A stretch of DNA of 64,000 nt from an uncultured Candidatus Saccharibacteria bacterium (GCA_964590315.1 CAZPVS010000001.1:42926-106925), one strand, 5' to 3'; counted from the first letter of the stretch, positions 7,375 to 23,786 are shown. Notes: generated by a model not told the origin, from the letters alone. A program made the numbers and translations.

Positions 7375-7580
7375 AAACTCCTTACTCCCACTGATTGCAG
7401 CGACACGCCACCACCAGAAAAACCCTTTGCCTATTTTTTTGATTTCCCCGCCTAGATTTCTTTTTAGTTGTAAAGGGTGTTTTCTGGTGGGGCGAGCGCG
7501 GGCTTGCCCGCGCAGGCGGCGCGGCTCACATCAGTTTCTTGTGTTAAAATAGGTTCGAGCTTTGGAATACAAAGCCACCA
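7361..7580. repeat. R1b: inverted copy of R1a
   Basis: Exact reverse complement of 3556-3775. It ends with ccacca, which is shared with the start of R2b. Confidence 0.85.
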
Positions 7581-7680
7581 AAATGGAACTTTCTGAGATT
7601 TGGTCGCCCGAATGGGCGGCTTTTTCTCTGGCCGCGCGCAGCGCGAGCCAGCTGTTTGCTTGGGGGGAATTGGGAAATTG
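7575..7680. repeat. R2b: 106-bp inverted copy of the tRNA 3' flank (partner at 9363-9468)
   Basis: Exact reverse complement of 9363-9468 by hand comparison. Confidence 0.8.
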
Positions 7681-7712
7681 ACGCGCCACAGGTGGCGCGT
7701 ATTTTTGTTTTG
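7681..7712 (+). terminator. rho-independent terminator after the cassette operon
   Basis: Palindrome acgcgccac-ag-gtggcgcgt followed by atttttgttttg. Confidence 0.5.
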
Positions 7713-7768: not shown

Positions 7769-7854
7769 CAATACAAATCAATCGGCAAAACTTTTCTATT
7801 TGAGAACTCAAATAGCCGTTTCGCACAAGTTAGGTTTTGCCTGATTTGTATTGC
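7769..7854 (+). promoter_or_regulatory. nested inverted repeats in the recombinase leader; candidate operator, att-like site or structured 5' UTR
   Basis: gcaatacaaatca..gcaaaac pairs with gttttgc..tgatttgtattgc. An inner palindrome ctatttgag-aa-ctcaaatag is enclosed. Confidence 0.4.
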
Positions 7855-7895
7855 AGCGAAGCGGCTTTTTGAGTGCAAGTGGAAAGGTGGCGTAT

Positions 7896-9506
7896 ATGTT
7901 CCCAAAACTCATATATTTCTTGTATGTCCGTAAGAGTACCGATGTAGAGGACAAACAAGTGTTATCTATTGCGGCGCAAATTGCCGAACTCAAAGAGTTC
8001 GCCGCTCGCATGGGCATATACATCGTCGAGGCCATCATAGAAAAGCAGACAGCCAAAAAGCCAGGACGAAAAAAGTTTAACAAAATGCTGGAGCGCATAG
8101 AAAACGGCGAAGCTAACGGGATTTTAGCGTGGATGCCTGATCGACTGTCGCGCAATTCGATAGATAGCGGCAAGATTATTTATATGCTCGACGAGCATGT
8201 TTTACTCGACTTAAAGTTTCCGCATTTCTGGTTTGAGAATACGCCACAAGGAAAATACATGCTGGCTAATGAGTTCAATTCGTCCAAGCAATACGTGGAC
8301 AATTTGTCGGTAAACACCAAGCGAGGGCTACGCCAAAAGGTGCGCGAGGGCTATTACCCAAGTCGTGCGCCGATTGGCTATTATAACGACATCAAGACCA
8401 AGACGGCAAAAGTGGACAAACGGCATGCGCCGATTGTCCGTCAAGCGTTCGAATTGTACGCTGGCGGCGATAAACGATTAGACGAAATCGCGGACTTTCT
8501 GTATGCCAATGGCATACAGACACGCAGCGGTAAAGTGCGCGGCAAGAAAACGACAGGCAAAAAGCCGTATCATAAAAATCGTATCAAGCGTATGCTGACA
8601 AATCCGTTTTATTATGGACATTTTTGCTATCTCGGCGAAATCCATGAGGGCAACCATAAAGCTATTGTCTCGAAACGGCTTTTTGACCAAGTGCAAACGG
8701 TGCTAGAGCGTCGCGGCAAGCCGCGCCACAAGGCGAAGAATGAGCCAAAACCGCTCTGCGGTTTGGTATATTGCTCGTGCGGCATGATGTTCACCTCAGA
8801 ACGTCAGACAAAACGACAGAAAAATGGCAATGTGCATATCTATGATTATTATCGTTGCACGCGCAAGAGCAAGACAGTTGTTTGTCGTGAGCCACATATT
8901 CGCGCCGAAGAGCTGGACAAACAACTGTCTGCGTTACTGGCTGGCTTTTCTTTACCCATTGCGTGGGCGGACAAACTGCGCGAGCTAATGCGCAAGGACG
9001 AGATGAGTGAAAAGGTGGACTATGAACGTATTATCGGGAATGATAAAGACAAAATCGCGCAGTTGTCTGAGAAAATGCAGCGATTGCTTGATGGCTACCT
9101 AGACGGCGACATTGAGCGCGAATTATACCAAGACAAACGCGCGGAATTACTTGGACAGAAGAAACGGCTGGAAGAAAAAATTGAGCAAGCGACGGTGGGC
9201 GTTTTGACGTGGGTCGAACCGATGAATACATGGCTTGAGCGAGCCGTTTCTATCTGTAAAATCGCAAAGAGTGATGACTTACTCGCCAAAAAGTCGCTTT
9301 GCCTCGAAATCTTCGGGTCGAACCTAAAAATGCAAAACAAAAATGTCGTCGCACGCGACGACCAATTTCCCAATTCCCCCCAAGCAAACAGCTGGCTCGC
9401 GCTGCGCGCGGCCAGAGAAAAAGCCGCCCATTCGGGCGACCAAATCTCAGAAAGTTCCATTTTGGTGGGGGTGGTAGGAATCGAACCTACTACCAAGTGG
9501 TTATGA
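7896..9506 (+). CDS. large serine recombinase (resolvase catalytic domain + recombinase domain + zinc ribbon + coiled coil)
   Basis: YVRKSTDVED (Ser nucleophile) and LAWMPDRLSRN resolvase motifs. Zinc ribbon CGLVYCSCG..YYRCTRK..C. Long coiled coil. RBS ggaaaggtgg before the ATG at 7896; the track start 7851 is TTG. The last ~48 codons run through repeat R2a and antisense into the tRNA. Confidence 0.85.
   Translation: MFPKLIYFLYVRKSTDVEDKQVLSIAAQIAELKEFAARMGIYIVEAIIEKQTAKKPGRKKFNKMLERIENGEANGILAWMPDRLSRNSIDSGKIIYMLDEHVLLDLKFPHFWFENTPQGKYMLANEFNSSKQYVDNLSVNTKRGLRQKVREGYYPSRAPIGYYNDIKTKTAKVDKRHAPIVRQAFELYAGGDKRLDEIADFLYANGIQTRSGKVRGKKTTGKKPYHKNRIKRMLTNPFYYGHFCYLGEIHEGNHKAIVSKRLFDQVQTVLERRGKPRHKAKNEPKPLCGLVYCSCGMMFTSERQTKRQKNGNVHIYDYYRCTRKSKTVVCREPHIRAEELDKQLSALLAGFSLPIAWADKLRELMRKDEMSEKVDYERIIGNDKDKIAQLSEKMQRLLDGYLDGDIERELYQDKRAELLGQKKRLEEKIEQATVGVLTWVEPMNTWLERAVSICKIAKSDDLLAKKSLCLEIFGSNLKMQNKNVVARDDQFPNSPQANSWLALRAAREKAAHSGDQISESSILVGVVGIEPTTKWL
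9363..9468. repeat. R2a: native 3' flank of tRNA(CAU), including its CCA end
   Basis: Inverted partner of 7575-7680. Ends at tggtgg, which is the reverse complement of the tRNA ACCACCA terminus. Confidence 0.8.
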
Positions 9507-9538
9507 GCCGCCTGCTCTAACCGATGAGCTACACCCCC
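9463..9538 (-). tRNA. tRNA with CAU anticodon (elongator Met or lysidine-modified Ile2)
   Basis: Reverse complement GGGGGTGTAGCTCATCGGTTAGAGCAGGCGGCTCATAACCACTTGGTAGTAGGTTCGATTCCTACCACCCCCACCA. Cloverleaf has a 7-bp acceptor stem and a GTAGG/CCTAC T-stem, with one mismatch in the anticodon stem. It is close to E. coli tRNA-Ile2. Confidence 0.8.
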
Positions 9539-10148: not shown

Positions 10149-10223
10149 CGCGGGGTAGAGCAGTGGCAGCTCGTGTGGCTCATAACCACAAGGTCGCAGG
10201 TTCGAGTCCTGCCCCCGCTACCA
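10149..10223 (+). tRNA. tRNA-Met (CAU), initiator-like
   Basis: CGCGGGGTAGAGCAGTGGCAGCTCGTGTGGCTCATAACCACAAGGTCGCAGGTTCGAGTCCTGCCCCCGCTACCA. Near-identical in layout to E. coli tRNA-fMet, including the unpaired 1:72 position (C:U). Confidence 0.85.
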
Positions 10224-10226
10224 TTT

Positions 10227-11069
10227 CTATGTAACATAGAAATTACTAGAACCGTTACGCGGTTCTTTTAATTTCAGAGATTCTAGCAATTTAGATTTAA
10301 CAACTTTGTTACTAAAAATAACTAGGTCATCTTCTAACTTAATGTCATGACCGTCTAGGTTATACGCGACACCACCAGCTTCTTGAATTATTAGTAAGCC
10401 TGCGGCTATGTCGTATTTTTGAGCAATACCACTAATCAAAAACTCAACTGCACCTTCTGCTACTGCCGGCAAGTCAAATACTGCAACACCAAAAACACGA
10501 ATCATATTTATTTGGTCTGCCAGTTTGAGCATAAGCTCTGTGCTTTTATTTGTTGATTTACCAACTTTGGCATCAAAGATTCCAATTGCGTCATTGAGGT
10601 CTCGCTCAGATACATTCAAATTACTTTTCTCGCCTGTTAAATTATTTCTATACTGGGCACCTTCACCTTTTGTGGCAGTATAAATCTCTTGGTTAAGGGG
10701 GCGATGGATTAATCCATAGATTGGAATGCCGTCCTTAACGATTGCTAGCTGAAAGCCGCATAGTGGAAGCCCTCTGATATAATTATTGGTACCATCAATA
10801 GGATCTACTACCCATTCAAAACCATTTTTTGATTCGACCCCTACATTTTCTTCTCCATAGAAACCATCGTCTGTAAACTGTTGAAGAACAGTTTTGACCG
10901 CCATGGATTCTATGTTTTTATCAAGTTCCGTAGCATAATCATGTGCTTGCTTTTCTTCGAAACGCATTTTTTTGTGGAATAAATCAGAAATCAGTGAGCC
11001 AGCGTTGCTGGCAATATATTCAGCTACAGGAATACGTTTATTTAATTCTTGTTTTATGTCATCAGTCAT
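10227..11069 (-). CDS. inositol monophosphatase family protein (SuhB/CysQ-like)
   Basis: WVVDPIDGTNNYIRG metal-binding motif. AT-rich gene inside the island. Confidence 0.75.
   Translation of the reverse strand: MTDDIKQELNKRIPVAEYIASNAGSLISDLFHKKMRFEEKQAHDYATELDKNIESMAVKTVLQQFTDDGFYGEENVGVESKNGFEWVVDPIDGTNNYIRGLPLCGFQLAIVKDGIPIYGLIHRPLNQEIYTATKGEGAQYRNNLTGEKSNLNVSERDLNDAIGIFDAKVGKSTNKSTELMLKLADQINMIRVFGVAVFDLPAVAEGAVEFLISGIAQKYDIAAGLLIIQEAGGVAYNLDGHDIKLEDDLVIFSNKVVKSKLLESLKLKEPRNGSSNFYVT
10248..10270. terminator. hairpin terminator after tRNA-fMet
   Basis: agaaccg-ttac-gcggttct followed by tttt. Confidence 0.5.
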
Positions 11070-11177
11070 TCAATATATTTTACTCTATAATAGATGGTTC
11101 GAGTATTAACTGTTGGACCAAACTATACTGTTTTTAGTCATATCGTTATTCCAACGAAGTAATTCTAAAGAAATTGG

Positions 11178-11247
11178 GTTCCAATTCGAATGGACATACT
11201 CTACCAAGCATAAGCATTATGACCTCAGAGGAATCTGGGGTCTTTTA
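11178..11247 (+). promoter_or_regulatory. copy 1 of a conserved ~65-nt motif (guuccaauucg..cuaccaag..) ending in a terminator hairpin + U-run
   Basis: Aligns with the copies at 12236-12301 and 13765-13832. Hairpin is gaccucag/cuggggUc. A partial extra copy sits at 11141-11161. Confidence 0.5.
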
Positions 11248-11282
11248 CTTGATTAAACAATTTTTGGCTTATACTACTCTTC

Positions 11283-12152
11283 ATGTGGTTTATTTACGCC
11301 CTACTTGGAGCAATCGGTAAGTCTTACTCGGGATTTTTTAGGAAGAAAATCGCCAAAAGTGTCAGTGGCTCAATGTACATCTGGATTGGGTATACGTTAA
11401 TACTTGTTGTTATGACGCCCTTCATGGTTCCACAAGCTTCAGCTGTTATCGATTCGTTGGTGAAATACCCGCTTGTTGTATTTGGAGCTGCCTTCTCTTA
11501 CATGGTGGCTACTCAATTAAACCTTGAGGCTTTAAAGCGTGAGGACTTATCCTATACAGCACCTTTAAATGCTTTTGTACCTGTCTTCACACTCGCAATA
11601 GCCGTTCCTATTCTTGGTGAAACACCGCCCAGGTTTGGCTTACTTGGCATAGCAATCGTTGTAGCAGGCGCCTACATTGTTAGTATTAAGCCTGAACGAA
11701 TACATTGGTATGACCCCCTTAAGCGATTGGCTACCAGTACTGGGGCGCAGCTAACACTGGGTGTAGCACTTTGCTATGCAATCAACACAATTCTTATGAA
11801 GGTTCTAACAAATAACGACTTTAACGCTTTTGTAGTTTTATACGTAACCACGCTCGTTGGGTGGCTACTACTTATTAACGTACCTATATCTCGTAGAAAT
11901 GAGTTTAAGGAGATTAAAAGTTCTGACAGGTTCTCAGTCCTAGGTGGTAGTTTAGGCTCATTTGCTGGTAGCTTTTTCCATATTCTTGCGCTATCAAACA
12001 CATACACCAGTTATGCAACTGCAGTACGCCGTCTTGATTCTGTAATATCAGTTCTACTGGGCTGGCGCTTCTTAAAAGAGAAAAGTATTCGTGTTAAGTT
12101 AGTGGGCAGCATTGTTATGACCATCGGTGCTGCTGTAATGCTAGTTGCCTAG
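11283..12152 (+). CDS. EamA/DMT-superfamily transporter
   Basis: Ten TM helices with a duplicated EamA-domain pattern (GETPPRFGLLGIAIVVAGAYIV). Confidence 0.7.
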   Translation: MWFIYALLGAIGKSYSGFFRKKIAKSVSGSMYIWIGYTLILVVMTPFMVPQASAVIDSLVKYPLVVFGAAFSYMVATQLNLEALKREDLSYTAPLNAFVPVFTLAIAVPILGETPPRFGLLGIAIVVAGAYIVSIKPERIHWYDPLKRLATSTGAQLTLGVALCYAINTILMKVLTNNDFNAFVVLYVTTLVGWLLLINVPISRRNEFKEIKSSDRFSVLGGSLGSFAGSFFHILALSNTYTSYATAVRRLDSVISVLLGWRFLKEKSIRVKLVGSIVMTIGAAVMLVA

Positions 12153-12235
12153 TTGTTCTAGTCTGCTGCGGTAGAGTAACTTAGCCCTGTTCTCTCTAGA
12201 GAGTTGTATCCATCTACTTAGTTCCGTAAGGATAT

Positions 12236-12301
12236 CGTTCCAATTCGATTGTACTTGGGCTACCATAAGCACTTTGACCTCTATTAATCAGAGGTCTTTT
12301 A
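12236..12301 (+). promoter_or_regulatory. copy 2 of the conserved motif + terminator hairpin
   Basis: cguuccaauucgauuguacuugggcuaccauaagcac followed by the hairpin gaccucu-auuaauc-agagguc and UUUU. Confidence 0.5.
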
Positions 12302-12303
12302 TA

Positions 12304-12332
12304 TTGACAATTCGTATATTTTGTGCTAATAT
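12304..12332 (+). promoter_or_regulatory. sigma70-like promoter (TTGACA-17-TAATAT) for the 12339 gene
   Basis: Consensus -35 box, 17-nt spacer and -10 box immediately after copy 2. Confidence 0.45.
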
Positions 12333-12338
12333 ATAATT

Positions 12339-13664
12339 ATGGACCAAATACCTGATTCGGAATTAGTTTCATCCGCTCGTAGGCATGATGTCGAATCTAA
12401 AATATTTGATGGTAGCGCGAGTAAGGCTGAAGTCCGCGATTGGTATTTCTCTTTAGACCCCCTGAGGGACGACTACTATGCATCCCTTACAGAATCTTCT
12501 TTAGGTACAACTGAATCGGACCTAGTTCTTCATAACGTTGAGTATTCGCTCAGCCAGGTAGCATTGTATGGCACAGCTGCACAAATACTTTCGGATGATA
12601 AAATCGAACATACTAAGCTTAGTGTTCCAATTAATACCTCTCCTTTTGGTCGGCAAAAATCTGAAGACACTAAGCCTCAGTTCAAGCATGTAGAATACAG
12701 CCAATTCAGTATTACCAAGCTCAAAGATATTGAATCTATAAATGAGCTGAACATTGCTCAGGACTGTTTTTCTCGAGCAAGTCGATATTGTTTAGATGTA
12801 CTACGCGTACTAGAGAATAACGAATCCGAGAAGAAATTCGTAGACTCTTTATTCGAGCTACAACGTTACTATGATCGACAGTCTGTTTATGCAAATAAAA
12901 CCGTAACCAGCCTAGCAGCAGGGTGGTTATTAACTGGATCAGAAGAGCTCAGGCCTGAGCCTCATGTACTCGACTCGATTATAGATGCTCAAATGCAGTG
13001 GCTTGGAAGCCAATTTTATAACCTGGGCATCAATAAAGATTATTCATCCCTTAAACCGGCTTTCTCAAACACAATTGAGACGATTGAAGAGTTTATAATT
13101 AATCCGACGAAAAATGCGGGTCGTAAAACTGTAAAAGATCCAGCTATGAAGGGTTATTTGCATGAATTGCTTTGGATGCTCGACGCAAACTTCGTCTTAA
13201 GTAATAAATATGAAAATCTGGGACCATGTGTGGTCCCGGCTCCATTAGGTTTTGACCGTCCCGAAATCAATCATCCAGAGTTGAAACGAGGCTACGACAT
13301 GGTATTGGTAGGTCACCACGCAAGAATGCCGATACAGCTAAAATCTGGTGCATTTAGTGCAAGCCGACATAAGTATGATGAACGGATATATCTAGCACAG
13401 GAAACCAACTTCAAAGATGTGGATTTAAGAAGACTGTCATCGAGAATTAATGATTACAGAAAATGGATAGAGAGTGATTTCAATGATAGCTCTATGGCTG
13501 ATAAGATTTCATCCAGAATTTTAGCAACAGTACCTGAAGCCATTGTCGCCCTCGAAGAGTATGATGCTATTGGTCGGGTTGATGAGGCGGTAGTTAAACA
13601 ATTAGGGAAGCAAGGCGTTCAGTTCCTGTCTAACACTTACCCGATTTATAAGCCTAAGAAGTGA
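12339..13664 (+). CDS. hypothetical protein, 441 aa, no recognisable domain
   Basis: Long AT-rich ORF with its own promoter. Island cargo. Confidence 0.5.
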   Translation: MDQIPDSELVSSARRHDVESKIFDGSASKAEVRDWYFSLDPLRDDYYASLTESSLGTTESDLVLHNVEYSLSQVALYGTAAQILSDDKIEHTKLSVPINTSPFGRQKSEDTKPQFKHVEYSQFSITKLKDIESINELNIAQDCFSRASRYCLDVLRVLENNESEKKFVDSLFELQRYYDRQSVYANKTVTSLAAGWLLTGSEELRPEPHVLDSIIDAQMQWLGSQFYNLGINKDYSSLKPAFSNTIETIEEFIINPTKNAGRKTVKDPAMKGYLHELLWMLDANFVLSNKYENLGPCVVPAPLGFDRPEINHPELKRGYDMVLVGHHARMPIQLKSGAFSASRHKYDERIYLAQETNFKDVDLRRLSSRINDYRKWIESDFNDSSMADKISSRILATVPEAIVALEEYDAIGRVDEAVVKQLGKQGVQFLSNTYPIYKPKK

Positions 13665-13764
13665 GAATTAGTAACATTTTCATTCCTCTATCTCTCGGGT
13701 AGAGCAGCCCTCAGACCGTCTGCTTCAGAAAATTGTATCCACCTTACTATTTCTTTGCATATTT

Positions 13765-13832
13765 CGTTCCAATTCGGGCGTACCTGGGCTACCAAGAGAA
13801 ATTTGAAACCGTCCCATCTGGGGCGGTTTTTA
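13765..13832 (+). promoter_or_regulatory. copy 3 of the conserved motif + terminator hairpin
   Basis: cguuccaauucgggcguaccugggcuaccaagag followed by the hairpin ccguccc-aucu-ggggcgg and UUUUU. Confidence 0.5.
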
Positions 13833-13966
13833 ATTTCTCCTTGTATCGGCGCAAGCCCCTAACCTGCGTCCTGCCAGCTTCAGATGGCGAGGTCGCACGG
13901 TTCGTTCGTAACGAGCACGCGCAGGTGCTTGCACCGAGCATGCTCGGCAACGTGCCGCAGGCAGCC

Positions 13967-13982
13967 CCTGCCCCCGCTACCA
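13967..13982. repeat. 16-nt direct repeat of the tRNA-fMet 3' end (attR-like island boundary)
   Basis: cctgcccccgctacca is identical to the tRNA T-stem 3' half + acceptor + ACCA. A chance 16-mer match is very unlikely in 64 kb. Confidence 0.55.
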
Positions 13983-16254: not shown

Positions 16255-16503
16255 ATGACCGGACTAGAACAGACATTTTATATTATGGGCATCGTCTTTA
16301 TGAGCGTCATGTTCATCCTCATGATAGCGATGGTAGCGGCGGTGTTTGTGATTCGCGCCAAGATCAATAAGATTCACGATGCGATTGAGGATAAACTGGA
16401 TATTGCGATGACGCTGGCCGAAAAAGGTGGTGAGCTGGCGGCTGTCGCGAGTACGAAAGTGTTTGATACGGCAAAACGAGCCTTTAAATCTTCTAAAAAA
16501 TAA
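16255..16503 (+). CDS. hypothetical membrane-anchored small protein
   Basis: N-terminal TM helix, then an amphipathic helix. Abuts the YihY gene. Confidence 0.35.
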   Translation: MTGLEQTFYIMGIVFMSVMFILMIAMVAAVFVIRAKINKIHDAIEDKLDIAMTLAEKGGELAAVASTKVFDTAKRAFKSSKK

Positions 16504-17453
16504 TGCCACTCATCCTATTTTTGCGACAGGTTATACAACAGGCTGGGCAACACAAGATTGGCCAAATGAGTGCAGCGTTTGCGTACGGTGCGGTCTTTTC
16601 CTTGGGGCCACTGCTCCTGATATTTATAAGCCTCCTGGGGATAGTCTATGGGCAAGCAGCCACTGAGGGGCGCTTGTACGGACAGCTGGCGGGTACTTTT
16701 GGTTCTGAGATGGCGCTCAGCTTACAAGATATGGTAGCCAGACTAAGCGAAACAGGAAACGGTGTGATAGCCGTTGTCGCGGGCACGATTGGTGTGCTGC
16801 TCGGTGCAGCGGGCATGAGCAGTCAGCTGCAAGACTCATTTAATACAATTTTTGGGGCAGTGCGTGATCCGAGGGGCGGAATTAAACGGACGGTCCTGGT
16901 CAAGGTGAAGAATATACTGATCATTTTATTATTTGGTCTATTCATTATTGTGTCTGTTGCGGTGACTGCCTTCACAAATGCTATCGGTTCTACAGTCCAA
17001 GAATCACTTGGACTGCCAACTGTTATCCTGGAGATCCTGAATACTCTCGTATCGCTTGGCATACTCACCGGTCTATTATTTGGCGTGTACAGGGTACTCC
17101 CCGATGTTCTCATCCCCAGACGCATAGCGCTTGTCGGTTCCCTGATAGTTGCATGCCTGTTTGCTGTTGGCAAAATCATACTGGCACTTATTATTGCCAA
17201 TAACGCGACGGCGAGTGCATATGGTGCAGCCGCAGTGCTCATATCGTTGCTTCTATGGACCTATTACCTCGGTCAGATACTGCTCACGGGCGCGCTAGGT
17301 ATGCAGGTGTATGGCCATAATCGTCTACTGGTGTATAAACCGAAGAAACACGCGCTGCAAAGAACGACCGTCCATGTGGACGGCTCCCAGCACCGGAGTC
17401 GCATAATCACCGCGTGGCTACGGGGATACCGTAGACGTAAAAATGCGAAGTAA
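16503..17453 (+). CDS. YihY/BrkB (virulence factor BrkB / former RNase BN) family membrane protein
   Basis: MSAAFAYGAVFSLGPLLLIFISLLG start and a 6-TM layout typical of the YihY family. Confidence 0.7.
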   Translation: MPLILFLRQVIQQAGQHKIGQMSAAFAYGAVFSLGPLLLIFISLLGIVYGQAATEGRLYGQLAGTFGSEMALSLQDMVARLSETGNGVIAVVAGTIGVLLGAAGMSSQLQDSFNTIFGAVRDPRGGIKRTVLVKVKNILIILLFGLFIIVSVAVTAFTNAIGSTVQESLGLPTVILEILNTLVSLGILTGLLFGVYRVLPDVLIPRRIALVGSLIVACLFAVGKIILALIIANNATASAYGAAAVLISLLLWTYYLGQILLTGALGMQVYGHNRLLVYKPKKHALQRTTVHVDGSQHRSRIITAWLRGYRRRKNAK

Positions 17454-17535
17454 TGATCAAAATCACACGGTATACATAGGAAAGGTCACAGCAATACTTC
17501 CCAGACATCACTACACTGGATAGAAGAGGGAGGAT

Positions 17536-18048
17536 ATGGTCATGTATGCAATTAACCACGTGCCACTTATTAGCCTCGCAGATTCCACAACAGGATGCTG
17601 CACGCTTATCAATCCAAAAGAATGGGATGAACAGACGTTTATCTTCAAAAACAAACTGTTTGCCAAGGCTCAGACTCGGAGCTTCATGCATATACCGCTC
17701 AATATGTCTTCTGTCATGGCTAAGGCGCAAGCGCTCATTGACGCAGCCGGTGCACGGAGTGACGAATGGATGATTCTCAGTTACGAGAAGTCTCCGTGGA
17801 AGGCCGAGCATTTTTTTGCCGTAACGAAAGAAGTACCTGGTCTTGAAACAGAGGAGCTTTCAGGAACATATATGACCAAAGTGTTCGAAGGCCCCTACAA
17901 GGATGCCGGGCGGTGGTATAAACAGTTGCAGTCATACGTTCAGGAACGAGGCCAAAAACCCCTGAAGACCTACTTCTTCTATACCGTATGCCCCGGCTGC
18001 GCACAGAAGTATGGCAAGAACTATGTTATCGGGTTTGAGCAGATCTAG
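17536..18048 (+). CDS. hypothetical protein (weak GyrI-like effector-binding resemblance)
   Basis: The FEGPYKDAGRWYKQLQSYVQERG segment resembles the GyrI-like pattern. Low certainty. Confidence 0.4.
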   Translation: MVMYAINHVPLISLADSTTGCCTLINPKEWDEQTFIFKNKLFAKAQTRSFMHIPLNMSSVMAKAQALIDAAGARSDEWMILSYEKSPWKAEHFFAVTKEVPGLETEELSGTYMTKVFEGPYKDAGRWYKQLQSYVQERGQKPLKTYFFYTVCPGCAQKYGKNYVIGFEQI

Positions 18049-18102
18049 TACATACTTTTCCGTTCGCTCATACCCCTATATCTGTTATGCTATACGTACG
18101 GT

Positions 18103-18531
18103 ATGGCAATGCGCGATAAGGTAAAACTTGGACTGACATTTGTAGCACTGAGTGTGGCGTTATCTCTATTTGCCTGGAGTAGCTTAGTTAACTATATACG
18201 CCATACAGGCAAGCAACCGCTCCCAGTGGTAGCGACACTAGATACACCCCGGTCAGCTGAAGCCGTACTCCTATCTCAAGAACCGGTAGCGCCTGCGCCA
18301 GTAACACCACAAGCTGCCAACACAGCCCCGTACGCAGCAGCTCAACAGGACTGTGCTTCTCTGCAAAACACTGACCGCTCAGATGCTCGTGCGGCACAAT
18401 CACCATCCGTTCATTGCATGAGCGAGCAACGGACAACAAAAGGTACCACGCATGACACAGAGCAGGACAGCCAAGAACACGTCTATTCCGAAGTAAAGCA
18501 GATGGTGTCTCGTATCATATTTTCACTCTAA
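18103..18531 (+). CDS. hypothetical Pro/Ala-rich membrane-anchored protein
   Basis: N-terminal TM helix, then a low-complexity P/A-rich region. Confidence 0.35.
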   Translation: MAMRDKVKLGLTFVALSVALSLFAWSSLVNYIRHTGKQPLPVVATLDTPRSAEAVLLSQEPVAPAPVTPQAANTAPYAAAQQDCASLQNTDRSDARAAQSPSVHCMSEQRTTKGTTHDTEQDSQEHVYSEVKQMVSRIIFSL

Positions 18532-18684
18532 ATCGGCTCGGGCAATGCTCATATTGATTCCTGTGGCGCAGGTAACTATGTGACCGGTATCAAGTGCGTA
18601 TGGTGACGGTGGTCATGGCAGCATACAGAGGTGAGCGCATAATAGGAGATGACACGGCGTACCGTGTAGAGAGAGGAGTCCGTT

Positions 18685-19170
18685 ATGAGCAGTATTGTAC
18701 ACAGCAGTGAGAAGCACGAGCGTATTTACGAGTTCTTGCAAGAAAACCCTGTGGCAGTGCTTGCCACGGTTGATAACGCGAAGCAGCCGCACGGCTCCGT
18801 CATTTATTTTCATGTCGACGACAACTTCACCGTGACGTTTACAACAAAGCACGATACAAAAAAACACGAGAACCTGAAGCACTCGCCCAAAGTAATGCTG
18901 GTGGTTTTTGAAGCAGCCTCACAGACGGTTGTGCAGATATCTGGTGAAGCAGAGGCCCTGACTGACAAGGCAGACATCAATGATGTCTTCACCCATGCCC
19001 TTGCTGCATCAATGCGCACGAGCATGGCAGGATTACCGCCTATTTCTAAACTGCAGGCAGGAAATTATTCGGCGTATCGTGTTTCTCCGACTGAAATACG
19101 TATGGCGGTGTTTGCTCGGCCAGACTCAGGTGGGTACGAGTTATTCGAGACGGTTGACCTGGCCCGCTAG
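18685..19170 (+). CDS. pyridoxamine 5'-phosphate oxidase-like FMN-binding protein
   Basis: PVAVLATVDNAKQPHGSVIYF matches the split-barrel PNPOx family N-terminus. Confidence 0.65.
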   Translation: MSSIVHSSEKHERIYEFLQENPVAVLATVDNAKQPHGSVIYFHVDDNFTVTFTTKHDTKKHENLKHSPKVMLVVFEAASQTVVQISGEAEALTDKADINDVFTHALAASMRTSMAGLPPISKLQAGNYSAYRVSPTEIRMAVFARPDSGGYELFETVDLAR

Positions 19171-19850
19171 ACAGTAGCGCCGAGTTTTGATTCAAATTCA
19201 TCCAGATTATGGACGGTGATTTTTCCCCGACTGACTGCAAGCAGTGAATCGTTGATAAGTTTGCGCATCTCACGACTGACGGTTTCTCGTGATAGCCCGG
19301 CTCGGGAAGCAAGCTCGTTTTCGGATATGACGACCACGCAACTGGCGTCAGGCTTAATGTCACCAAATCGACGACATTGCACAAGTATTTCATACATCAG
19401 CCTGCCCTTTGCACTTCCTCCCATCAAATGCACCATGCGTCGCAAGATGCCGTCTGTCCCGGCATAGACTCGGCTCAATAAATCAAACAATATGTCAGGG
19501 TTTTCCTTAACGAAGGAAATAACTTCTTCAGGGCGGGCAATGGACACTTCGCAATCTTCAGATGCCTGGTAGAAATATTCATTCGGTGTATTATTGACTG
19601 CCCACGACATAGGAAAGAACGTGCCTGGCTTAAAAACATTTATAACAATCTCGTCACCGCGATACGACAAATCGTACTGTCTGATCAGTCCTTTTTTTAA
19701 ATAGAAGATGTATTGCGGGTCATCATTTGCAAACACGATTATTTGCCCCTTGTCATACTGGCGAACAGGGTATTTTGCAAAAAATTCGCTGAGTTGTGCG
19801 CTAATCGTGGTTTCCATTGCAGTCTCTTTACCTATTAGTGTGCGGCACAA
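19167..19850 (-). CDS. Crp/Fnr family transcriptional regulator
   Basis: cNMP-binding beta-roll plus a C-terminal HTH (ELASRAGLSRETVSREMRKL). Confidence 0.8.
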   Translation of the reverse strand: MCRTLIGKETAMETTISAQLSEFFAKYPVRQYDKGQIIVFANDDPQYIFYLKKGLIRQYDLSYRGDEIVINVFKPGTFFPMSWAVNNTPNEYFYQASEDCEVSIARPEEVISFVKENPDILFDLLSRVYAGTDGILRRMVHLMGGSAKGRLMYEILVQCRRFGDIKPDASCVVVISENELASRAGLSRETVSREMRKLINDSLLAVSRGKITVHNLDEFESKLGATV

Positions 19851-20176
19851 TCAATAGGGATGCAACCCCGAGTTGTAATGTGACCAGGATCATGGCGCAT
19901 GCATGACACAGGTCAAGGTGTTGATACAGTCCAGCTGTCATAGTAGAAGCTAGACAAGGAGGAGGGGACATGTTTCATGCTAAGCAACATAGCAAAACAA
20001 ACATATCACTAGAACTCGAGCTGGCGTTCACGAATCGGCGGCTCCTCAAGCACCATGTATGGGAAGAGGCACGTCGACACGGCTTACTATAATTGTCGAT
20101 GTAATATTTCCCGCTGCACCGTACAGGTACACATCCTAAACTAATAGATACCAGGTAGTGGTGAAAAGGAGGGTGT

Positions 20177-20446
20177 ATGAAGCATGTGCATCGATTGCCA
20201 AGCAGCAAGGATATTATTTGGCTGAGTAAACTCGCGACGTCGTACCCAGTCACACGTCGGCAGATTGTCCGGGTTGCACGCATGTGGAATTTCAAGAATG
20301 ATCTTATCGCGTTCCTTCGTTTATTTCCCCCCGACGAGATGTTTGAGTCACGTGCAGATTTTGTAACGCGCTGTGAGGACCTGACGATATTGATCAGGCA
20401 AGAGTGGGAATCACCCAAGGAAGTACTCCGTAGCCAACAAGACTAA
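20177..20446 (+). CDS. hypothetical protein
   Basis: ORF only. Confidence 0.3.
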   Translation: MKHVHRLPSSKDIIWLSKLATSYPVTRRQIVRVARMWNFKNDLIAFLRLFPPDEMFESRADFVTRCEDLTILIRQEWESPKEVLRSQQD

Positions 20447-20457
20447 ACATAATTATA

Positions 20458-20485
20458 TTGACAAATACACAAATATGTGTATAAT
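20458..20485 (+). promoter_or_regulatory. strong sigma70-like promoter (TTGACA-16-TATAAT)
   Basis: Consensus -35 and -10 boxes. Confidence 0.45.
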
Positions 20486-20547
20486 AGTAATTGTTATATC
20501 GCGGTAAAACAAACACCCTAAAACCAAAAAACAAGAAAGGATAAAAC

Positions 20548-20652
20548 GTGAGCGTATTTGCGCTTTCGCATCAGCTGGCATATGAATTATTGCCAGCCAC
20601 CAGTGAAGAAATTGTAAACCTCGATAGAGATTTCAATGACATTTACTGCTAA
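20548..20652 (+). CDS. candidate 34-aa peptide (GTG start, RBS aggataaaac), ending in Cys
   Basis: Sits downstream of the strong promoter and upstream of a bidirectional terminator. Below the ORF-track size cutoff. Confidence 0.25.
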   Translation: MSVFALSHQLAYELLPATSEEIVNLDRDFNDIYC

Positions 20653-20749
20653 GTTATGTTGATACAAGACATCAGACCCGCCAAAAGGCTTGGTCAAAAG
20701 AAATTACGGCGTACCAGCCGCACGAGGCACTACATTGTAGTCGCCGCAT

Positions 20750-20780
20750 AAAAAAGAAGCCCCGTTATGGGGCTTCTTTT
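20750..20780. terminator. bidirectional rho-independent terminator
   Basis: aaaaaagaagcccc-gtta-tggggcttctttt. Confidence 0.55.
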
Positions 20781-21213
20781 AGTGTCTAAACCCTAATAAA
20801 TCACCCAACCCTTGTACGACACGATTTGTGTCAGTCGTCACCCCGTGAAATTCGTCAAATTCCTGCAATGGCACCCATTCAGCTTCGTCGTGTTCGTGAC
20901 TCAGCTCGATAACATCGCTCGTGGCTAGTGCGGCGAGCCCATAGACAACAATCATTCTACCGGCGTGTTTGCCTGTAAGGATTTCGCGAGGCTTTAGTAT
21001 CATGGGCCACATGGTTAACATATCAACATCCTGCCCCGCTTCTTCCTGCACTTCGCGGTGGCCAGCTATGACAGCCGGTTCGCCTGGTTGTATGCCGCCA
21101 CCCGGAAACTCCCAGCACCCAACCTGTTGTCCTTCAGCACGCCGCAGTAATAATACGCGGTCTTCATACTGGACAGCAACGCGAGCCGAATGTATTGTTT
21201 CGTATGATGCCAT
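20779..21213 (-). CDS. NUDIX hydrolase
   Basis: Nudix box GGGIQPGEPAVIAGHREVQEEAG. Confidence 0.8.
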   Translation of the reverse strand: MASYETIHSARVAVQYEDRVLLLRRAEGQQVGCWEFPGGGIQPGEPAVIAGHREVQEEAGQDVDMLTMWPMILKPREILTGKHAGRMIVVYGLAALATSDVIELSHEHDEAEWVPLQEFDEFHGVTTDTNRVVQGLGDLLGFRH

Positions 21214-21244
21214 GATTAATTACCCGTTTTCTCTATTAAAACAC

Positions 21245-22189
21245 TTAGTATACTCCAGCTTTCCCAAACTGTTGAGCGGAAGGCGGTCGACGATCTGTTG
21301 CAATGCCCATGGCATCGAGTACGAACCGAGCGGAACGACGATCTGTAGGCATGTGGGCGATGCGGTCACTGCGCTCGTCAATATGAATCTCTGGGGCTTT
21401 CCCCGTGGCCGCGGTGAGCGCTCGGATTGATACATCTTCGTAAATTATCGGATCGGGGTGTCTGCCTCTTATCCAGAGGAGGCGTTCCGGTGTGGTGTTG
21501 AGCGGCTCCATATGGGCTCTTGATAAGTATTTGCACTCCGGTACGACCCGACTTGCCGGCGCTGAAGCAACAGAAGCAAAGTTGCGCCTTTGGAGAAACG
21601 CCCTCCCGTGGTGATCAAGCATGTAACTATAGCCAAGAATACCGACAGAAGTCAGTAGTGCACGTGGCCCGGGCCGTATGGCGCGTTTCCCAATTGGTGT
21701 GGCCCGAAACGCCATCGTAGAGACACGCGCCACCATATCATCCTTGCCATGTTCGAGACCGTAGCGAAGGAAATCCCACCCAAGTAATCCACCCATAGAT
21801 AATCCAAGAAGGAGTACTTCATCCGGGTTGCCGTCTTCTAGTTTTTGATAGGTCTTTTCAAATAAGCGGTGCGGATTAAAACCCGATTGTGGGGCAATCG
21901 GAGCGATAAGATCAACATGTTCATCCAGTTGGGAATAAAACCTGCCGGCAACATCTTGCGTACCCATGCAGAGGCCTCCCATAAGAACGAGTGTCTTGTG
22001 GACGGTTTCTCGCGTGTGCGTAATGACTTCAGGCTCGTCGGTCTCCGATAGGGATATACCGCGTTTGCCCATATAGTGGTCAAGGCTCAAGCCAGCCACC
22101 GTCATGCCAAGGGCCCCAACAGCAGAGGTCAGACCAACTGTAAGGAGTTGCTGTCTTCCGAATTCTGCATGTTTATTTGGGGTATCCAT
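21245..22189 (-). CDS. alpha/beta hydrolase fold protein
   Basis: GLSMGG nucleophile elbow (GxSxG). Confidence 0.7.
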   Translation of the reverse strand: MDTPNKHAEFGRQQLLTVGLTSAVGALGMTVAGLSLDHYMGKRGISLSETDEPEVITHTRETVHKTLVLMGGLCMGTQDVAGRFYSQLDEHVDLIAPIAPQSGFNPHRLFEKTYQKLEDGNPDEVLLLGLSMGGLLGWDFLRYGLEHGKDDMVARVSTMAFRATPIGKRAIRPGPRALLTSVGILGYSYMLDHHGRAFLQRRNFASVASAPASRVVPECKYLSRAHMEPLNTTPERLLWIRGRHPDPIIYEDVSIRALTAATGKAPEIHIDERSDRIAHMPTDRRSARFVLDAMGIATDRRPPSAQQFGKAGVY

Positions 22190-22253
22190 GGTGACATTTA
22201 CCCTTGTGCCTTGTTATACGCCACAAAATGCTTTTGTCAATAATATTCATGCA

Positions 22254-22303
22254 CTAAAAAGACGGACCGATGTCCGTCTTGCTGTTTCCATATGGTAGCG
22301 GCG
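22254..22303. repeat. 50-bp direct repeat (partner at 23524-23573) containing a terminator hairpin and a tRNA 3'-end-like tail
   Basis: ctaaaaagacggacCgatgtccgtcttgctgtttCcatatggtagcggcg versus the partner, with 2 mismatches. The gacggac/gtccgtc hairpin is followed by TTTT on the minus strand. Confidence 0.6.
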
Positions 22304-22375
22304 CTATTAACCACTTGAAACCTGATAAAGCGTGAACTGATTCTAGAGATTCTGGTTATTAGGCGAAAAATACTA

Positions 22376-23299
22376 TCATCGACTGATGCGCACTAAGCGC
22401 GTCTCGCCATTATAAATGACCTTCAAATCAATAATCTTTTCGTTGTTTCTAACGTCTGCTTTAATCTCACCTTGTCTTGTTATGCCTTTGTTTATATCAC
22501 CACCTAGGTCAGATTGCTTATACGGATAGTAGGCATAGTTGAAGGGTGGAACGTAACGAGTACTCAACAACGAATCATAATCAAAATGTGTTTGATCTGT
22601 CTTTAGCTCTCGTCCAGTGTCAGGTAATAATGAAATAGTAATCTTCGAGCTATCGATATTATTGCTGGCGGTCAGTTCATAATTAAGGCTTAGAGTTTGG
22701 TTGTCTGCGATATATTTATTAATCGAGTTACGTGAATCATTTCTCCACTCACAATATCGTCTAGTTGGGTTGTCTTTTTCCCACTGTTCTTCGTCGTGGA
22801 ATACCCATTTGCCCGTCGCCTCATTAAAGTAATCTTGTGGTTGATTATTATCTTCTGGATATTTTGAGCAATCCTCTCTTGCGGTCAAATCTCCATACCT
22901 GCTGATTTTTTCTTGCGGGACGTTAATCTCTACCGCCTTAAAAGATGGTTCTTTTACGGTTAGTACAAAATCTGAAAAATTAATTGCATCGCTAGTGGTA
23001 TAAATCTTATCGTTTAGGTGTTGCTGATACTTGTTGTAGGCAAAGAATCCGCCACATACTAGTAGGAGCAGTAGTATTGGTAATACAAGCCACTTAACGG
23101 ACTTCTTGCCCTTAGACCTCACGACATTTACTGCAAAAAACGCGTACGCAGATAGAAGGATTATTGAGCCCATAATCAGAGACATTCCGATAGTGCTAGA
23201 GGGGTCAATGAAAAAAGATGGTATTAGAATACCCAATATGAGTACAGTCAATCCGATAGCTACTAGATGTACGGGTTTTATATTCAGTCTTTTGCTCAT
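22376..23299 (-). CDS. hypothetical membrane protein (N-terminal TM helices + extracytoplasmic domain)
   Basis: The only gene lying between the two 50-bp direct repeats. Confidence 0.45.
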   Translation of the reverse strand: MSKRLNIKPVHLVAIGLTVLILGILIPSFFIDPSSTIGMSLIMGSIILLSAYAFFAVNVVRSKGKKSVKWLVLPILLLLLVCGGFFAYNKYQQHLNDKIYTTSDAINFSDFVLTVKEPSFKAVEINVPQEKISRYGDLTAREDCSKYPEDNNQPQDYFNEATGKWVFHDEEQWEKDNPTRRYCEWRNDSRNSINKYIADNQTLSLNYELTASNNIDSSKITISLLPDTGRELKTDQTHFDYDSLLSTRYVPPFNYAYYPYKQSDLGGDINKGITRQGEIKADVRNNEKIIDLKVIYNGETRLVRISR

Positions 23300-23523: not shown

Positions 23524-23573
23524 CTAAAAAGACGGACTGATGTCCGTCTTGCTGTTTTCATATGGTAGCGGCG
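23524..23573. repeat. 50-bp direct repeat, second copy
   Basis: See 22254-22303. Confidence 0.6.
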
Positions 23574-23782: not shown

Positions 23783-23786
23783 TAAT

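Follow-up and report, generated by a model that had tools for sequence, protein, structure and literature searches.

In the 64,000-nt stretch of Saccharibacteria DNA analysed here (hereafter the window), a conserved segment followed by a hairpin and a T-run recurs on the plus strand, and the question raised by this locus is whether the repeat is an RNA element controlling the gene downstream, a boundary between mobile cassettes, or something else. The preliminary description of three such copies holds, as they have in common a 29-nt core, GTTCCAATTCGNNNGNACNNNNNCTACCA, at 11178-11206, 12237-12265 and 13766-13794, and as a terminator scan detects a hairpin with a T-run 10-15 nt past each core (11221-11242, 12276-12296 and 13805-13830). 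Its unit size of ~65 nt has to be revised: a profile built from relatives gives a repeat unit of ~111-117 nt, referred to here as type A, with a 3' end ..GGGCTACCA whose final bases, GCTACCA, are the last 7 nt of tRNA-fMet. With nhmmer, this profile matches just the three plus-strand copies in the whole 64 kb, namely copy 1 at 11096-11206 (E = 2.8e-10, profile positions 4-117; ..ACTCTACCA subfamily), copy 2 at 12154-12265 (E = 5.4e-27, profile positions 4-117) and copy 3 at 13697-13794 (E = 5.5e-12, profile positions 19-117), and what had been taken for an extra partial copy at 11141-11161 is really the 5' part of copy 1. Copies 2 and 3 have in addition ~40 nt in common further upstream (family D3). 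A search with the core 12-mer, 2 mismatches being allowed, found 8 occurrences versus 5.3 expected and is alone not significant; a pattern of 21 specified bases retrieved 56 loci in 596 Gb of genomes, for a chance expectation that we estimate ourselves at ~0.3. The three-fold repeat is far beyond chance.

The hairpins past the copies are ordinary intrinsic terminators, drawn from a few sequence families, which end the transcript of the upstream cassette. Their stems are GC-rich, comprise 7-11 pairs and are followed by a T-run in the terminator scan. The plus-strand terminators after copy 1 (family F1, AGCATAAGCAYTATGACCTC..., 11221-11247) and copy 2 (family F2, TAAGCACTTTGACCTCTG..., 12276-12301) are built on one and the same GACCTC/GAGGTC-type stem, and the unrelated one after copy 3 (13805-13835, plus strand) resembles family F5, with an A-tract, a hairpin and a T-tract, and is probably bidirectional. 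In a 22-sequence alignment of the copy-1/2 terminator family, just 2 of the 8 stem pairs show a double change, each of them in a single sequence, with a covariation term of -0.25 kcal/mol. The stems are conserved or replaced rather than compensated, so that calling the hairpin covarying was an overstatement. Identical terminator families are found behind genuine tRNA-fMet in other genomes, behind type A and behind a GC-rich module B that is described below.

As regards type A itself, RNAalifold returned no consensus structure, with zero pairs, on 43 or 85 gapless copies, and no pair of columns covaries in these alignments, none having at least three true pair types beyond Y-G combinations. Single-sequence fold z-scores range from -1.2 to -1.9, and type A matches no Rfam family, the match of copy 3 to Phe_leader being sub-threshold (28 bits versus a cutoff of 55). 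A structured cis-regulatory RNA, in which the conserved 5' part would be an aptamer and the hairpin the expression-platform terminator for the downstream gene, would account for the succession of conserved sequence, terminator and gene, and might claim the weak Phe_leader match for itself. It is nevertheless very improbable, not only in view of the results on folding, covariation and stems, but also because of the position and context of the element: type A lies between the upstream gene, at whose stop codon it starts, and the terminator, rather than in a 5' leader, the neighbouring genes are mutually unrelated (82 Pfam families among 79 flanking proteins), the same downstream module also stands behind a tRNA gene, and the coding signal discussed below sits on the antisense strand. 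Moreover, a separate promoter-like site is located between the copy-2 terminator and the next gene, at 12304-12332 on the plus strand (sigma-70-like, TTGACA-17-TAATAT, TG-extended; promoter scan). The ATG of this gene comes 7 nt past the -10 box, and its mRNA is therefore probably leaderless. A promoter and a gene had been described after every copy; a promoter-like site passing the scan does follow copy 2, but only that one, and copy 3 is followed by the 150-nt GC-rich module, with no gene.

The other reading proposed at the outset, a cassette-boundary element, is essentially right in that type A delimits stacked cassettes, but the element is not attC-like. A tRNA-fMet gene (initiator-type tRNA-Met, CGCGGGG...CCCCCGCTACCA) was identified by ARAGORN and Rfam at 10149-10223 on the plus strand, and the island terminates with a displaced tRNA end, CCTGCCCCCGCTACCA, at 13967-13982, which directly repeats 10208-10223 over 16 bp. 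The island between the tRNA-fMet and its displaced 3' end (10224-13982) comprises three single-gene cassettes devoid of a large serine recombinase (LSR), all given here in plus-strand orientation. Cassette 1 (10224-11206) contains a bidirectional terminator (10248-10266, terminator scan), a minus-strand gene of the inositol-monophosphatase family (10227-11069; Pfam, NCBIfam) and type-A copy 1. Cassette 2 (11207-12265) consists of the F1 terminator, a plus-strand gene for an EamA-family transporter (11283-12152), whose stop codon lies at the first bases of type-A copy 2, and copy 2 itself. Cassette 3 (12266-13794) is made of the F2 terminator, the above promoter, a plus-strand gene of 441 aa (12339-13664), whose product has no match in Pfam, NCBIfam or PADLOC, and type-A copy 3. 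Module B (13833-13982, plus strand), finally, consists of the 3'-third of tRNA-fMet and, separated from it by an insert of ~65 nt, the displaced 3' end of the tRNA. The inner boundaries of the island read GCTACCA or CTCTACCA. The tRNA-fMet at 10149-10223 probably anchors the array, as the attB-left that would become attL after integration. A tblastn search of the 64-kb window found no LSR of the family linked to type A, so none is present in the island.

Beyond the window and its three copies, the profile has 122 matches in 56 genome loci, and the pattern loci are nearly all labelled Saccharibacteria or Patescibacteria. The arrays occupy one strand per locus, with up to 6 copies, and a tRNA-fMet, the same 75-nt tRNA, is located upstream of the array and co-oriented with it in 26 of 27 loci; in L065, the array lies behind another tRNA. 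Genes upstream of tRNA-fMet are housekeeping ones (DivIC, Dus, RuvABC and others), and the 25 families most frequent there include no integrase. The type-A sequence is highly conserved and aligns gap-free, and the stop codons of upstream genes fall inside it, ORFs ending at profile positions 4, 11, 24 or ~50. Most arrays are without a nearby recombinase. A MITE or an IS end scattered by a transposase could be invoked for a ~110-nt repeat in intergenic island DNA, but its probability is negligible, since the copies occur only in one-strand arrays, in nearly all informative loci behind tRNA-fMet and nowhere else in the 64-kb window, since neither inverted repeats nor a hairpin were recognised in the element, and since type A has no match in IMG/VR.

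An integron-like system, in which a tyrosine integrase would recombine type A, as an attC-type site, in the form of folded single-stranded DNA, has in its favour co-oriented single-gene cassettes of diverse cargo, each followed by a site of ~60-120 nt with its start at the stop codon or close to it. What is found within the site speaks differently: type A displays neither the imperfect palindrome (R''-L''...L'-R') nor a predicted hairpin, and its high sequence conservation is unlike attC, the picture being that of a double-stranded att-type site of fixed sequence. In addition, at least one cassette, cassette 3, has its own promoter-like site, there is no IntI, Phage_integrase being absent among the top 25 families by member count of array-flanking proteins, and the site is physically fused to a recombinase of the serine type. 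The integron-like explanation is therefore extremely unlikely.

This recombinase is an LSR with Resolvase, Recombinase and Zn ribbon domains, whose members score best to the CcrB and XisF models, below cutoff in both cases. In one group of loci (L035, L057, L058, L088, L089-L092 and L093), which includes three circular contigs and further linear ones, the LSR ORF ends inside antisense type A. In L046 and L050, the LSR gene adjoins tRNA-fMet and reads into the tRNA antisense, and one type-A copy lies at the far end, 4.4-6.5 kb away, followed by an F5 terminator and module B; these two insertions are flanked by GCTACCAA(G), which is also the core common to tRNA-fMet and type A. A metagenome scan retrieved 6 further LSRs beside antisense tRNA-fMet and 2 beside antisense type A. 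When the junctions are aligned, the P' side is identical, and on the left stands the tRNA in 8 loci and type A in 6, as in L060 versus L088. Furthermore, three contigs, each with one LSR ending inside its one antisense type A, are circular by exact terminal overlap (L035, 127 bp, 4.5 kb; L088, 127 bp, 6.2 kb; L093, 30 bp, 9.8 kb), the overlaps being equal to the assembler k-mer size and of a kind that a tandem duplication could also give, and the coverage read from the contig names being low (1.4x for L035, 2.1x for L088). The sole phage-like feature of the elements is a small HTH_Tnp_1_2 gene in L035.

Since the 3' end of the LSR ORF lies in type A in the circles and in the antisense tRNA when integrated, type A is in all likelihood the element-side left arm (P arm) of attP and attR, belonging to small LSR-moved integrative elements of Saccharibacteria whose target is the initiator tRNA gene, at its 3' end. 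In the circular, excised order, the cargo gene is followed by type A ending in ..GCTACCA, by AGnnAGAnTTT-hairpin-TTTTT and by the LSR in opposite orientation, whose ORF continues across the terminator and type A on their antisense strand, thereby gaining a conserved C-terminal tail, LVAQVHSNWN.IL.EL.RW.... In the integrated form, the same P' side and LSR abut the tRNA-fMet ..CCCGCTACCA, the LSR ORF ends in the antisense tRNA (LVAGAGLEPATLWL, then a stop codon), and the opposite end of the insertion is occupied by type A, behind which comes the former flank of the tRNA. The three window copies would then correspond to attR-type junctions, with the P arm, the core and the terminator in succession. 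Judging from where similarity switches, the crossover dinucleotide would be located inside the GCTACCAA(G) core, and the near-invariant 29-nt core may be an LSR-binding half-site. The distance from GTTC to the end of CTACCA is 29 nt in type A versus 24 nt in tRNA-fMet, where GTTC belongs to the T-loop; if GTTC is assumed to be the ZD motif, this additional 5 bp from the core would match attP/attB geometry, as the ZD motif is shifted by 5 bp in attP versus attB of serine integrases (PMC3783163). No symmetric or matching motif was found in the P' (right) half-sites.

Two classes of LSR tail, with the junction codons L-V-A in common, are also met in the protein database, the VHSNWN-type being of 26-36 aa and the tRNA-encoded one of about 14 aa. 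A VHSNWN-type tail is present in 14 of 26 fetched LSR sequences (the query's own cluster and 13 homologues), in each case on a contig shorter than 10 kb, and most of the 12 others carry a tRNA-encoded tail such as LVAGAGLEPATLWL, several of them on contigs up to 700 kb. Integration and excision might in this way toggle the C-terminus of the LSR, possibly tuning its activity or directionality, by analogy with Mx8.

The reverse strand of type A reads as a conserved peptide of 22-36 aa, (L/M)VAQVHSNWN.IL.EL.RW..; the bases that vary fall at wobble positions. In the window, tblastn aligns the minus-strand frames of all three copies, each ending in a stop codon, with the LSR P0014: copy 1 at 11106-11207 (LVEYVHSNWNPISLELLRWNNDMTKNSIVWSNS; residues 513-531, 68% identity), copy 2 at 12141-12266 (MVAQVQSNWNDILTELSRWIQLSRENRAKLLYRSRLEQLGN; tail residues 510-548, 71-83% identity, E = 1e-7) and copy 3 at 13688-13795 (LVAQVRPNWNEICKEIVRWIQFSEADGLRAALPER; tail, 53% identity, E = 6.5e-4). 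The copy-1 frame is probably a relic of a recombinase tail. The median open length is 34 codons in the tail frame, versus 1 and 15.5 in the two remaining frames of that strand, and the first 22 codons are stop-free in 92 of 100 copies, most of them without an adjacent LSR. The synonymous fraction of single-base codon differences reaches 0.43 for 0.22 expected (0.15-0.36 in other frames), and entropy by codon position increases in the order 2 < 1 < 3. AlphaFold2 predicts the tail as a helix at residues 521-538, with a pLDDT of about 60-75 (moderate confidence). Serine-integrase half-sites need only about 25 bp, so that the conservation of the remaining ~85 nt rests on the tail-coding argument, which is statistical. 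Type A would thus be conserved because it serves both recombinase binding and, on the opposite strand, protein coding, the latter being reflected in the conservation further upstream. Against this reading stands the retention of open tail frames in the three window copies, with no LSR of the family in the 64 kb.

Open frames in copies without an adjacent LSR would also be expected if type A had a role of its own in each cassette, as a ~34-aa minus-strand peptide gene or as an insulating or stabilising 3'-UTR module, the LSR link being secondary. The CTACCA junction always supplies a TTG or ATG start for such a peptide, and the sense-strand stops in three frames at the element start, the tRNA-like ACCA end and the terminator would suit a 3'-UTR module. 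However, the promoter scan accepts no minus-strand site upstream of the window copies. At the F1-type junction a TAA occurs in frame four codons upstream, and the start has the terminator hairpin immediately before it, in our reading an awkward setting for a ribosome-binding site. Coding continuity from upstream into the type-A antisense frame is clear only for LSR genes, and RNA structure was not found in the alignments of type A. Such an independent role is accordingly improbable.

Related arrays have been rearranged with respect to each other. One segment lies behind the tRNA in L008 and behind a type-A copy in L039, with the cassette order shuffled between both, and 114 of 160 alignment ends of related arrays are at most 150 nt from an element end. 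Breakpoints are also located inside type A, at profile positions ~48-62 and ~97, a pattern that suits homologous recombination among copies no less than site-specific exchange. Homologous recombination following natural transformation, with elements and tRNA acting as portable homology blocks in the manner of minimal mobile elements, would explain such clustered breakpoints at several in-element positions and the missing recombinase near most arrays. As an alternative to the attachment site it is rather unlikely, as it leaves unexplained the origin and conservation of the element, the fusion with the LSR, the circular contigs and the precise GCTACCAA-flanked insertions at the tRNA; as an added process reshuffling the arrays, it is compatible with the P-arm explanation.

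A broader proposal, which we put forward as tentative, is that a previously undescribed family of miniature LSR elements is at work throughout the Saccharibacteria (CPR/Patescibacteria), stacking single-gene expression cassettes, each self-contained, at the initiator tRNA in the manner of an integron. The attP inside the LSR ORF would swap a helical 22-36-aa tail (excision) for a tRNA-encoded one (integration), and LSR-less cassettes would keep their tail-coding sites through re-mobilisation in trans. If true, a switch of serine-integrase activity or directionality would be built into the element, with no extra factor, and re-mobilisation in trans would explain the intact tail-coding sites of LSR-less cassettes.

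Compared with LSR attP/attB systems (Listeria A118/LI, phiC31, Bxb1), the elements have a recombinase of the same domain make-up (Resolvase, Recombinase and Zn ribbon), attP and attB that differ but for a short core, GCTACCAA(G), a half-site conserved over ~29 bp and, under the same assumption on GTTC, a motif that the element site carries 5 bp farther from the core than the host site does, as for ZD motifs (PMC3783163). They differ by an attP inside the recombinase ORF, by the initiator-tRNA 3' end as a target and by their tiny size (4.5-10 kb), and they are not evidently phages; no recombination directionality factor was identified. The composite islands of the staphylococcal cassette chromosome (SCC), with Ccr recombinases, resemble them in their LSRs, those described here being nearest to the CcrB and XisF models, below cutoff, in serial insertion at one site, the 3' end of a housekeeping gene, and in units between short direct repeats, some of which are recombinase-less, psiSCC being a parallel for the latter. 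The target is here a tRNA gene whereas that of SCC is rlmH, most units are a single gene equipped with a terminator and, in at least one case, a promoter-like site of its own, and the repeat, of ~110 nt, codes for a recombinase tail.

The tycheposons of Prochlorococcus are integrative cargo elements of a streamlined genome which target tRNA genes, including one tRNA-Met; each new integration displaces the older ones inward, so that islands come to contain partial tRNAs and degenerate remnants (bioRxiv 10.1101/2020.12.28.424599). Tycheposons thus share with the present arrays the stacking of tRNA-targeting cargo elements in a streamlined genome, but the phylum is another one, the recombinase gene spans attP here, and the internal boundaries are a dedicated conserved element with only 7-9 nt in common with the tRNA instead of plain partial tRNAs. 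An attP core in coding sequence, with different C-termini encoded by integrated and excised forms, is known from myxophage Mx8 and from BPs, whose integrases are tyrosine integrases, in contrast with the serine recombinase found here. In Mx8, attP is inside the integrase gene intP, and integration at a tRNA swaps its 3' end and alters the C-terminus (PMC6070905); in mycobacteriophage BPs, attP is inside the repressor gene (gp33) and confers integration-dependent immunity (PMC4557955). In the present elements, unlike in these two, the tail of the integrated form is encoded by the tRNA antisense. By analogy, the system may be viewed as a variant of SCC- or tycheposon-like arrays combined with a Mx8-like attP inside the integrase ORF.

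The three copies of the motif put forward in the preliminary description are real: a 29-nt core, GTTCCAATTCGNNNGNACNNNNNCTACCA, starts at 11178, 12237 and 13766, and each copy is followed by a terminator-like hairpin and a T-run. A scan with the core pattern, using one genome per species, matched 56 loci, nearly all in Saccharibacteria or Patescibacteria MAGs, whose alignment delineated a gapless element of ~117 nt ending with GCTACCA, hereafter type A. The profile built from these aligned loci detects 122 copies across the 56 loci and, in the window, exactly three, at 11096-11206, 12154-12265 and 13697-13794. The extra partial copy previously placed at 11141-11161 belongs to copy 1, since the profile match of the latter covers it. 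Within a locus, the copies lie on the same strand, in arrays of up to six with a spacing of 0.5-2 kb, and the array is directly downstream of, and co-oriented with, the initiator tRNA-Met (tRNA-fMet) in 26 of the 27 loci that include this 75-nt tRNA. The genes upstream of the copies are unrelated accessory genes (82 Pfam families in 79 proteins, e.g. transporters, methyltransferases, a SMODS-associated sensor domain, Schlafen AlbA_2 domains and hydrolases), whose stop codon falls inside type A, at profile position 4, 11, 24 or, in the 'short' copies, ~50. Type-A arrays at tRNA-fMet appear to be the main hot spot of accessory-gene gain in Saccharibacteria.

In the window, tRNA-fMet occupies 10149-10223 (75 nt, CGCGGGG...CCCCCGCTACCA), its last 16 nt, CCTGCCCCCGCTACCA, being repeated at 13967-13982. 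In view of this repeated tRNA end, and of a G+C content of 40-43% between the two sites against ~48% in the surroundings, the intervening stretch looks like an island inserted at the tRNA 3' end. There, the tRNA is followed by a first cassette comprising an inositol-monophosphatase-family gene (10227-11069, minus strand) and type A, a second comprising a terminator of sequence family F1, an EamA transporter gene (11283-12152) and type A, and a third comprising an F2 terminator, a promoter, a 441-aa ORF (12339-13664) that matches no family, and type A. An F5-like terminator then precedes module B, a GC-rich repeat of ~130-150 nt (here 13833-13982) which closes the island with the displaced tRNA end. 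An exact-sequence database look-up of two window proteins found nothing.

A riboswitch-like RNA, one of the two identities initially considered for the motif, finds no support in the enlarged set of copies. No Rfam family matches the element, even at E = 10, single-sequence folds are unremarkable (z-scores of -1.2 to -1.9) and reveal no recurrent predicted pairing between copies except in the terminator hairpins, and RNAalifold returns zero pairs and no covarying column pair, whether from 43 long gapless copies or from 85 short ones. Type A is therefore not a structured RNA, nor a new RNA class. Hairpins drawn by hand in its 5' part (TAGAG/CTCTA, GAGCT/AGCTC, CTCC/GGAG) are unsupported in fixed columns and are, in hindsight, by-products of codon patterns. 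As for the hairpins following type A, they sort into a few sequence families: F1 (AGCATAAGCAYTATGACCTC..), F2 (TAAGCACTTTGACCTCTG..), F3/F4 (AGTGAAAATAACAGATAGAGATTGG..) and F5 (AGAAAA..GACYCATC..TTTTCTTGG). Copies 1 and 2 of the window carry F1 and F2, respectively, which have a GACCTC/GAGGTC stem in common, while the terminator of copy 3 is unrelated to these two and resembles F5. The F1/F2 stem is conserved rather than compensated, a double change being found in two of its eight pairs, in one sequence each, so that the covariation described at first was overstated. These hairpins are ordinary intrinsic terminators.

The second identity initially considered, a cassette-boundary element, is in turn borne out. 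The same terminator families are found directly 3' of the genuine tRNA-fMet in other genomes, of type A and of module B, and one segment located after the tRNA in locus L008 is located after a type-A copy in locus L039, the cassette order differing between the two. These shared junctions argue that the end of type A (GGGCTACCA) acts as a stand-in for the tRNA 3' end, the arrays being units stacked behind tRNA-fMet with GCTACCA at their boundaries. Module B, present in 20 copies in 11 loci (e.g. L029 692-816 and L008 3499-3624) and always preceded by an F5-type terminator, consists of nt ~44-57 of tRNA-fMet (GGTCGCAGGTTCG, 3' third), an insert of ~65 nt and an exact copy of the tRNA 3' end (CCTGCCCCCGCTACCA). 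Its insert forms a hairpin with compensatory changes between copies, and the module could be either an RNA gene or the att arm of another element family.

Among the protein families listed, no integrase consistently adjoins tRNA-fMet, whose upstream genes are housekeeping ones (e.g. DivIC, Dus and Ruv); genes for large serine recombinases (LSRs) are nevertheless present in several loci. L046 and L050 have an LSR gene immediately downstream of, and convergent with, tRNA-fMet, its ORF extending through the antisense terminator into the antisense tRNA (..LVAGAGLEPATLWL*). The far end, 4.4-6.5 kb off, bears a single type A with an F5 terminator and module B behind it. The LSR of L035, 58-61% identical to the former two, converges on type A and reads through it (..LVDLVHSNWNVILSELNRWKQLLPDSTGLAYSA*). 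This 4668-bp contig has an exact 127-bp terminal overlap, the signature expected of a circular molecule (4.5 kb), and carries a G5+DUF3761 protein as well as XRE and HTH_Tnp_1_2 genes next to type A. Similarly, L088 (127-bp overlap, circular length 6.2 kb, DUF3761 cargo) and L093 (30-bp overlap, 9.8 kb, with an NgoPII-type restriction enzyme and DNA methylase forming a restriction-modification pair, and an HTH_17/MerR gene) each contain a single LSR, which terminates within a single antisense type A. On none of these three circles was a replication gene recognised.

A metagenome scan with the LSR added six cases next to an antisense tRNA-fMet and two next to an antisense type A, more distant LSRs adjoining another tRNA. 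Once aligned, the junctions have one conserved right side (P'), AGnnAGAnTTT-hairpin-TTTTT followed by the convergent LSR gene, and a left side which is the tRNA in eight loci and type A in six; L060 and L088, for instance, are nearly identical on the right, with the tRNA on the left of L060 vs type A on that of L088. The common core of the type-A and tRNA sides is GCTACCAA(G). These arrangements match the pattern expected of an excised attP (type A, P', LSR) and of an integrated attL (tRNA, P', LSR) and attR (cargo and type A joined to the former tRNA flank). The LSRs of the metagenome loci L064-L068, 45-49% identical to the tRNA-fMet-targeting ones, abut a different antisense tRNA (3' end ..GGGGTCACCA). 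Since L065 also contains two type-A copies 5.4-6.2 kb from its LSR, the LSR family appears to have switched tRNA targets.

If type A is part of attP, the recombinase gene ends within its own attachment site. In ~100 copies, the reverse strand of type A, read in the frame (T/A)TG GTA GCC.., encodes (L/M)VAQVHSNWN(L/V)(I/L)L.EL(S/A)RW(K/L)QL.R....YST..*. The median open length of this frame is 34 codons, the medians of the other two antisense frames being 1 and 15.5, and its first 22 codons are free of stops in 92 of 100 copies. Single-base codon differences are synonymous in 43% of cases vs 22% expected (15-36% in the other five frames), column entropy increases from codon position 2 to 1 to 3, and the core position called 'variable' (GNAC) coincides with the wobble position of a valine codon. 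With the LSR of a circular element as query, tblastn matched all three window copies, only through its last 19-39 residues, and AlphaFold2 models the conserved tail as a helix (residues 521-538) with moderate confidence (pLDDT ~60-75). A protein-database search with the LSR gave 314 homologues, and two tail classes were seen among 26 fetched sequences: 14, counting the query's own cluster, have the VHSNWN-type tail and lie on contigs <10 kb, and most of the remaining ones have a tRNA-encoded tail, several on contigs of up to 700 kb. Module B was also considered as a second tail-coding arm and rejected, its antisense frame not being conserved.

Coding would not be the only constraint, since the 29-nt core is near-invariant even at synonymous sites, which points to further selection at the DNA level; the core would be the recombinase-binding half-site. 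The distance from GTTC to the CTACCA end is 29 nt in type A vs 24 nt for the T-loop GTTC of the tRNA, and this 5-bp shift would fit the offset described for attP, compared with attB, in its outer (zinc-ribbon) motif (PMC3783163).

No LSR of the type-A-linked family is found in the three cassettes nor anywhere in the 64-kb window, where the antisense tail frames of copies 1, 2 and 3 are open over 33, 41 and 35 codons. Either full elements have decayed to these cassettes, or the cassettes may be movable by an LSR acting in trans. Homologous recombination between copies probably also reshuffles the arrays, because breakpoints between related arrays map within type A itself (profile positions ~48-62 and ~97). 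All-against-all BLAST mapping shows breakpoints clustering at the elements with no single crossover position, alignment ends being blurred because the element itself is conserved.

Other identities were discarded. A tRNA-derived pseudogene or tRNA-like RNA was suggested by the ACCA end and by the words TTCGAAT, GGTAGAG and GGTTCTAGTCC, but neither ARAGORN nor Rfam calls it, no cloverleaf register pairs, and nhmmer detects no similarity of type A to any tRNA, even at E = 1000. A DNA uptake sequence does not agree with only three copies in 64 kb, all within the island, nor a dif/Xer-type or tyrosine-integrase core with the absence of inverted core arms and of tyrosine recombinases in the family lists; for a phage or plasmid origin, the core pattern is unmatched in IMG/VR.

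The recombinase and site architecture of type-A elements is that of serine integrases, and the piling up of units, some without recombinase, at one chromosomal site is reminiscent of SCC composite islands and tycheposons (bioRxiv 10.1101/2020.12.28.424599). An attP within a coding sequence, with integration rewriting the C-terminus, was described for the Mx8 integrase (PMC6070905) and the BPs repressor (PMC4557955). The type-A-linked LSR resembles both in this respect. If confirmed, a serine integrase that changes its own C-terminus as it recombines would represent a new coupling of recombination state and enzyme properties; such a self-inflicted change is, to our knowledge, known only for the Mx8 integrase. 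No prior description of such a system in Saccharibacteria or Patescibacteria was found in the literature searched. As far as we know, Saccharibacteria, which are ultra-small epibiotic bacteria, have few described mobile elements and a limited genetic toolkit. An obvious candidate for Patescibacteria integration vectors would be a compact serine integrase whose attP is defined and ~50 bp long and whose attB, the 3' end of the initiator tRNA, is both universal and essential. The tempting 'new riboswitch' reading gives way to a concrete, testable DNA-level mechanism, of relevance to researchers working on CPR bacteria and serine integrases. In annotation, the ~110-nt repeats and the terminators behind them are to be taken as markers of cassette boundaries, not as ncRNA genes.

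One recurrence is unaccounted for by the attachment-site model: a 15-mer identical to the tRNA-fMet T arm, AGGTTCGAGTCCTGC, lies ~75 nt past CTACCA in L006, L013, L022, L027 and others, after an F3/F4 terminator and preceded by CACCTCTGTTA, the ORF of the next cassette following at 14-40 nt. The window also contains a second array, on the minus strand (16331-23812) and convergent with the first, behind a tRNA-Met(CAT) at 23686-23762, with displaced 3' ends (TGGTAGCGGCG) at 23563, 22293 and 16331 and a near-identical terminator at each. At ~23563-23680, a partial copy of the tRNA carries in its anticodon loop an insert of ~55 nt resembling that of module B (cgcgcagaagctcgcttcgagca), and 23787-23812 repeats the tRNA's first 26 nt. 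Another LSR ORF (7851-9506), from a family distinct from that of the type-A-linked LSRs (~25% identity), runs towards a tRNA-Met at 9463-9538 in convergent orientation and extends 44 nt into its antisense strand (..ILVGVVGIEPTTKWL*). Since the last ~42 codons of this ORF recur in inverted orientation at 7552-7690, together with the terminator and a pseudo-tRNA end (GGTTCGAGC..GCCACCA), the gene is flanked by inverted att-like sites. Near a tRNA-Lys (56753-56829, minus strand), two segments of ~40-50 nt are duplicated 168-194 nt apart within 56450-56829 (56528-56579/56722-56773 and 56450-56490/56618-56658), probably another att-site duplication because one of them overlaps the tRNA 3' end. Finally, a 503-aa ORF contains an exact 66-nt repeat, 90 nt apart (39338-39493), encoding EDINSDGTVNIQDFSLLAAKFG, dockerin-like by eye, and a 132-nt repeat with 82% identity, 294 nt apart, is found at 38753-39178.
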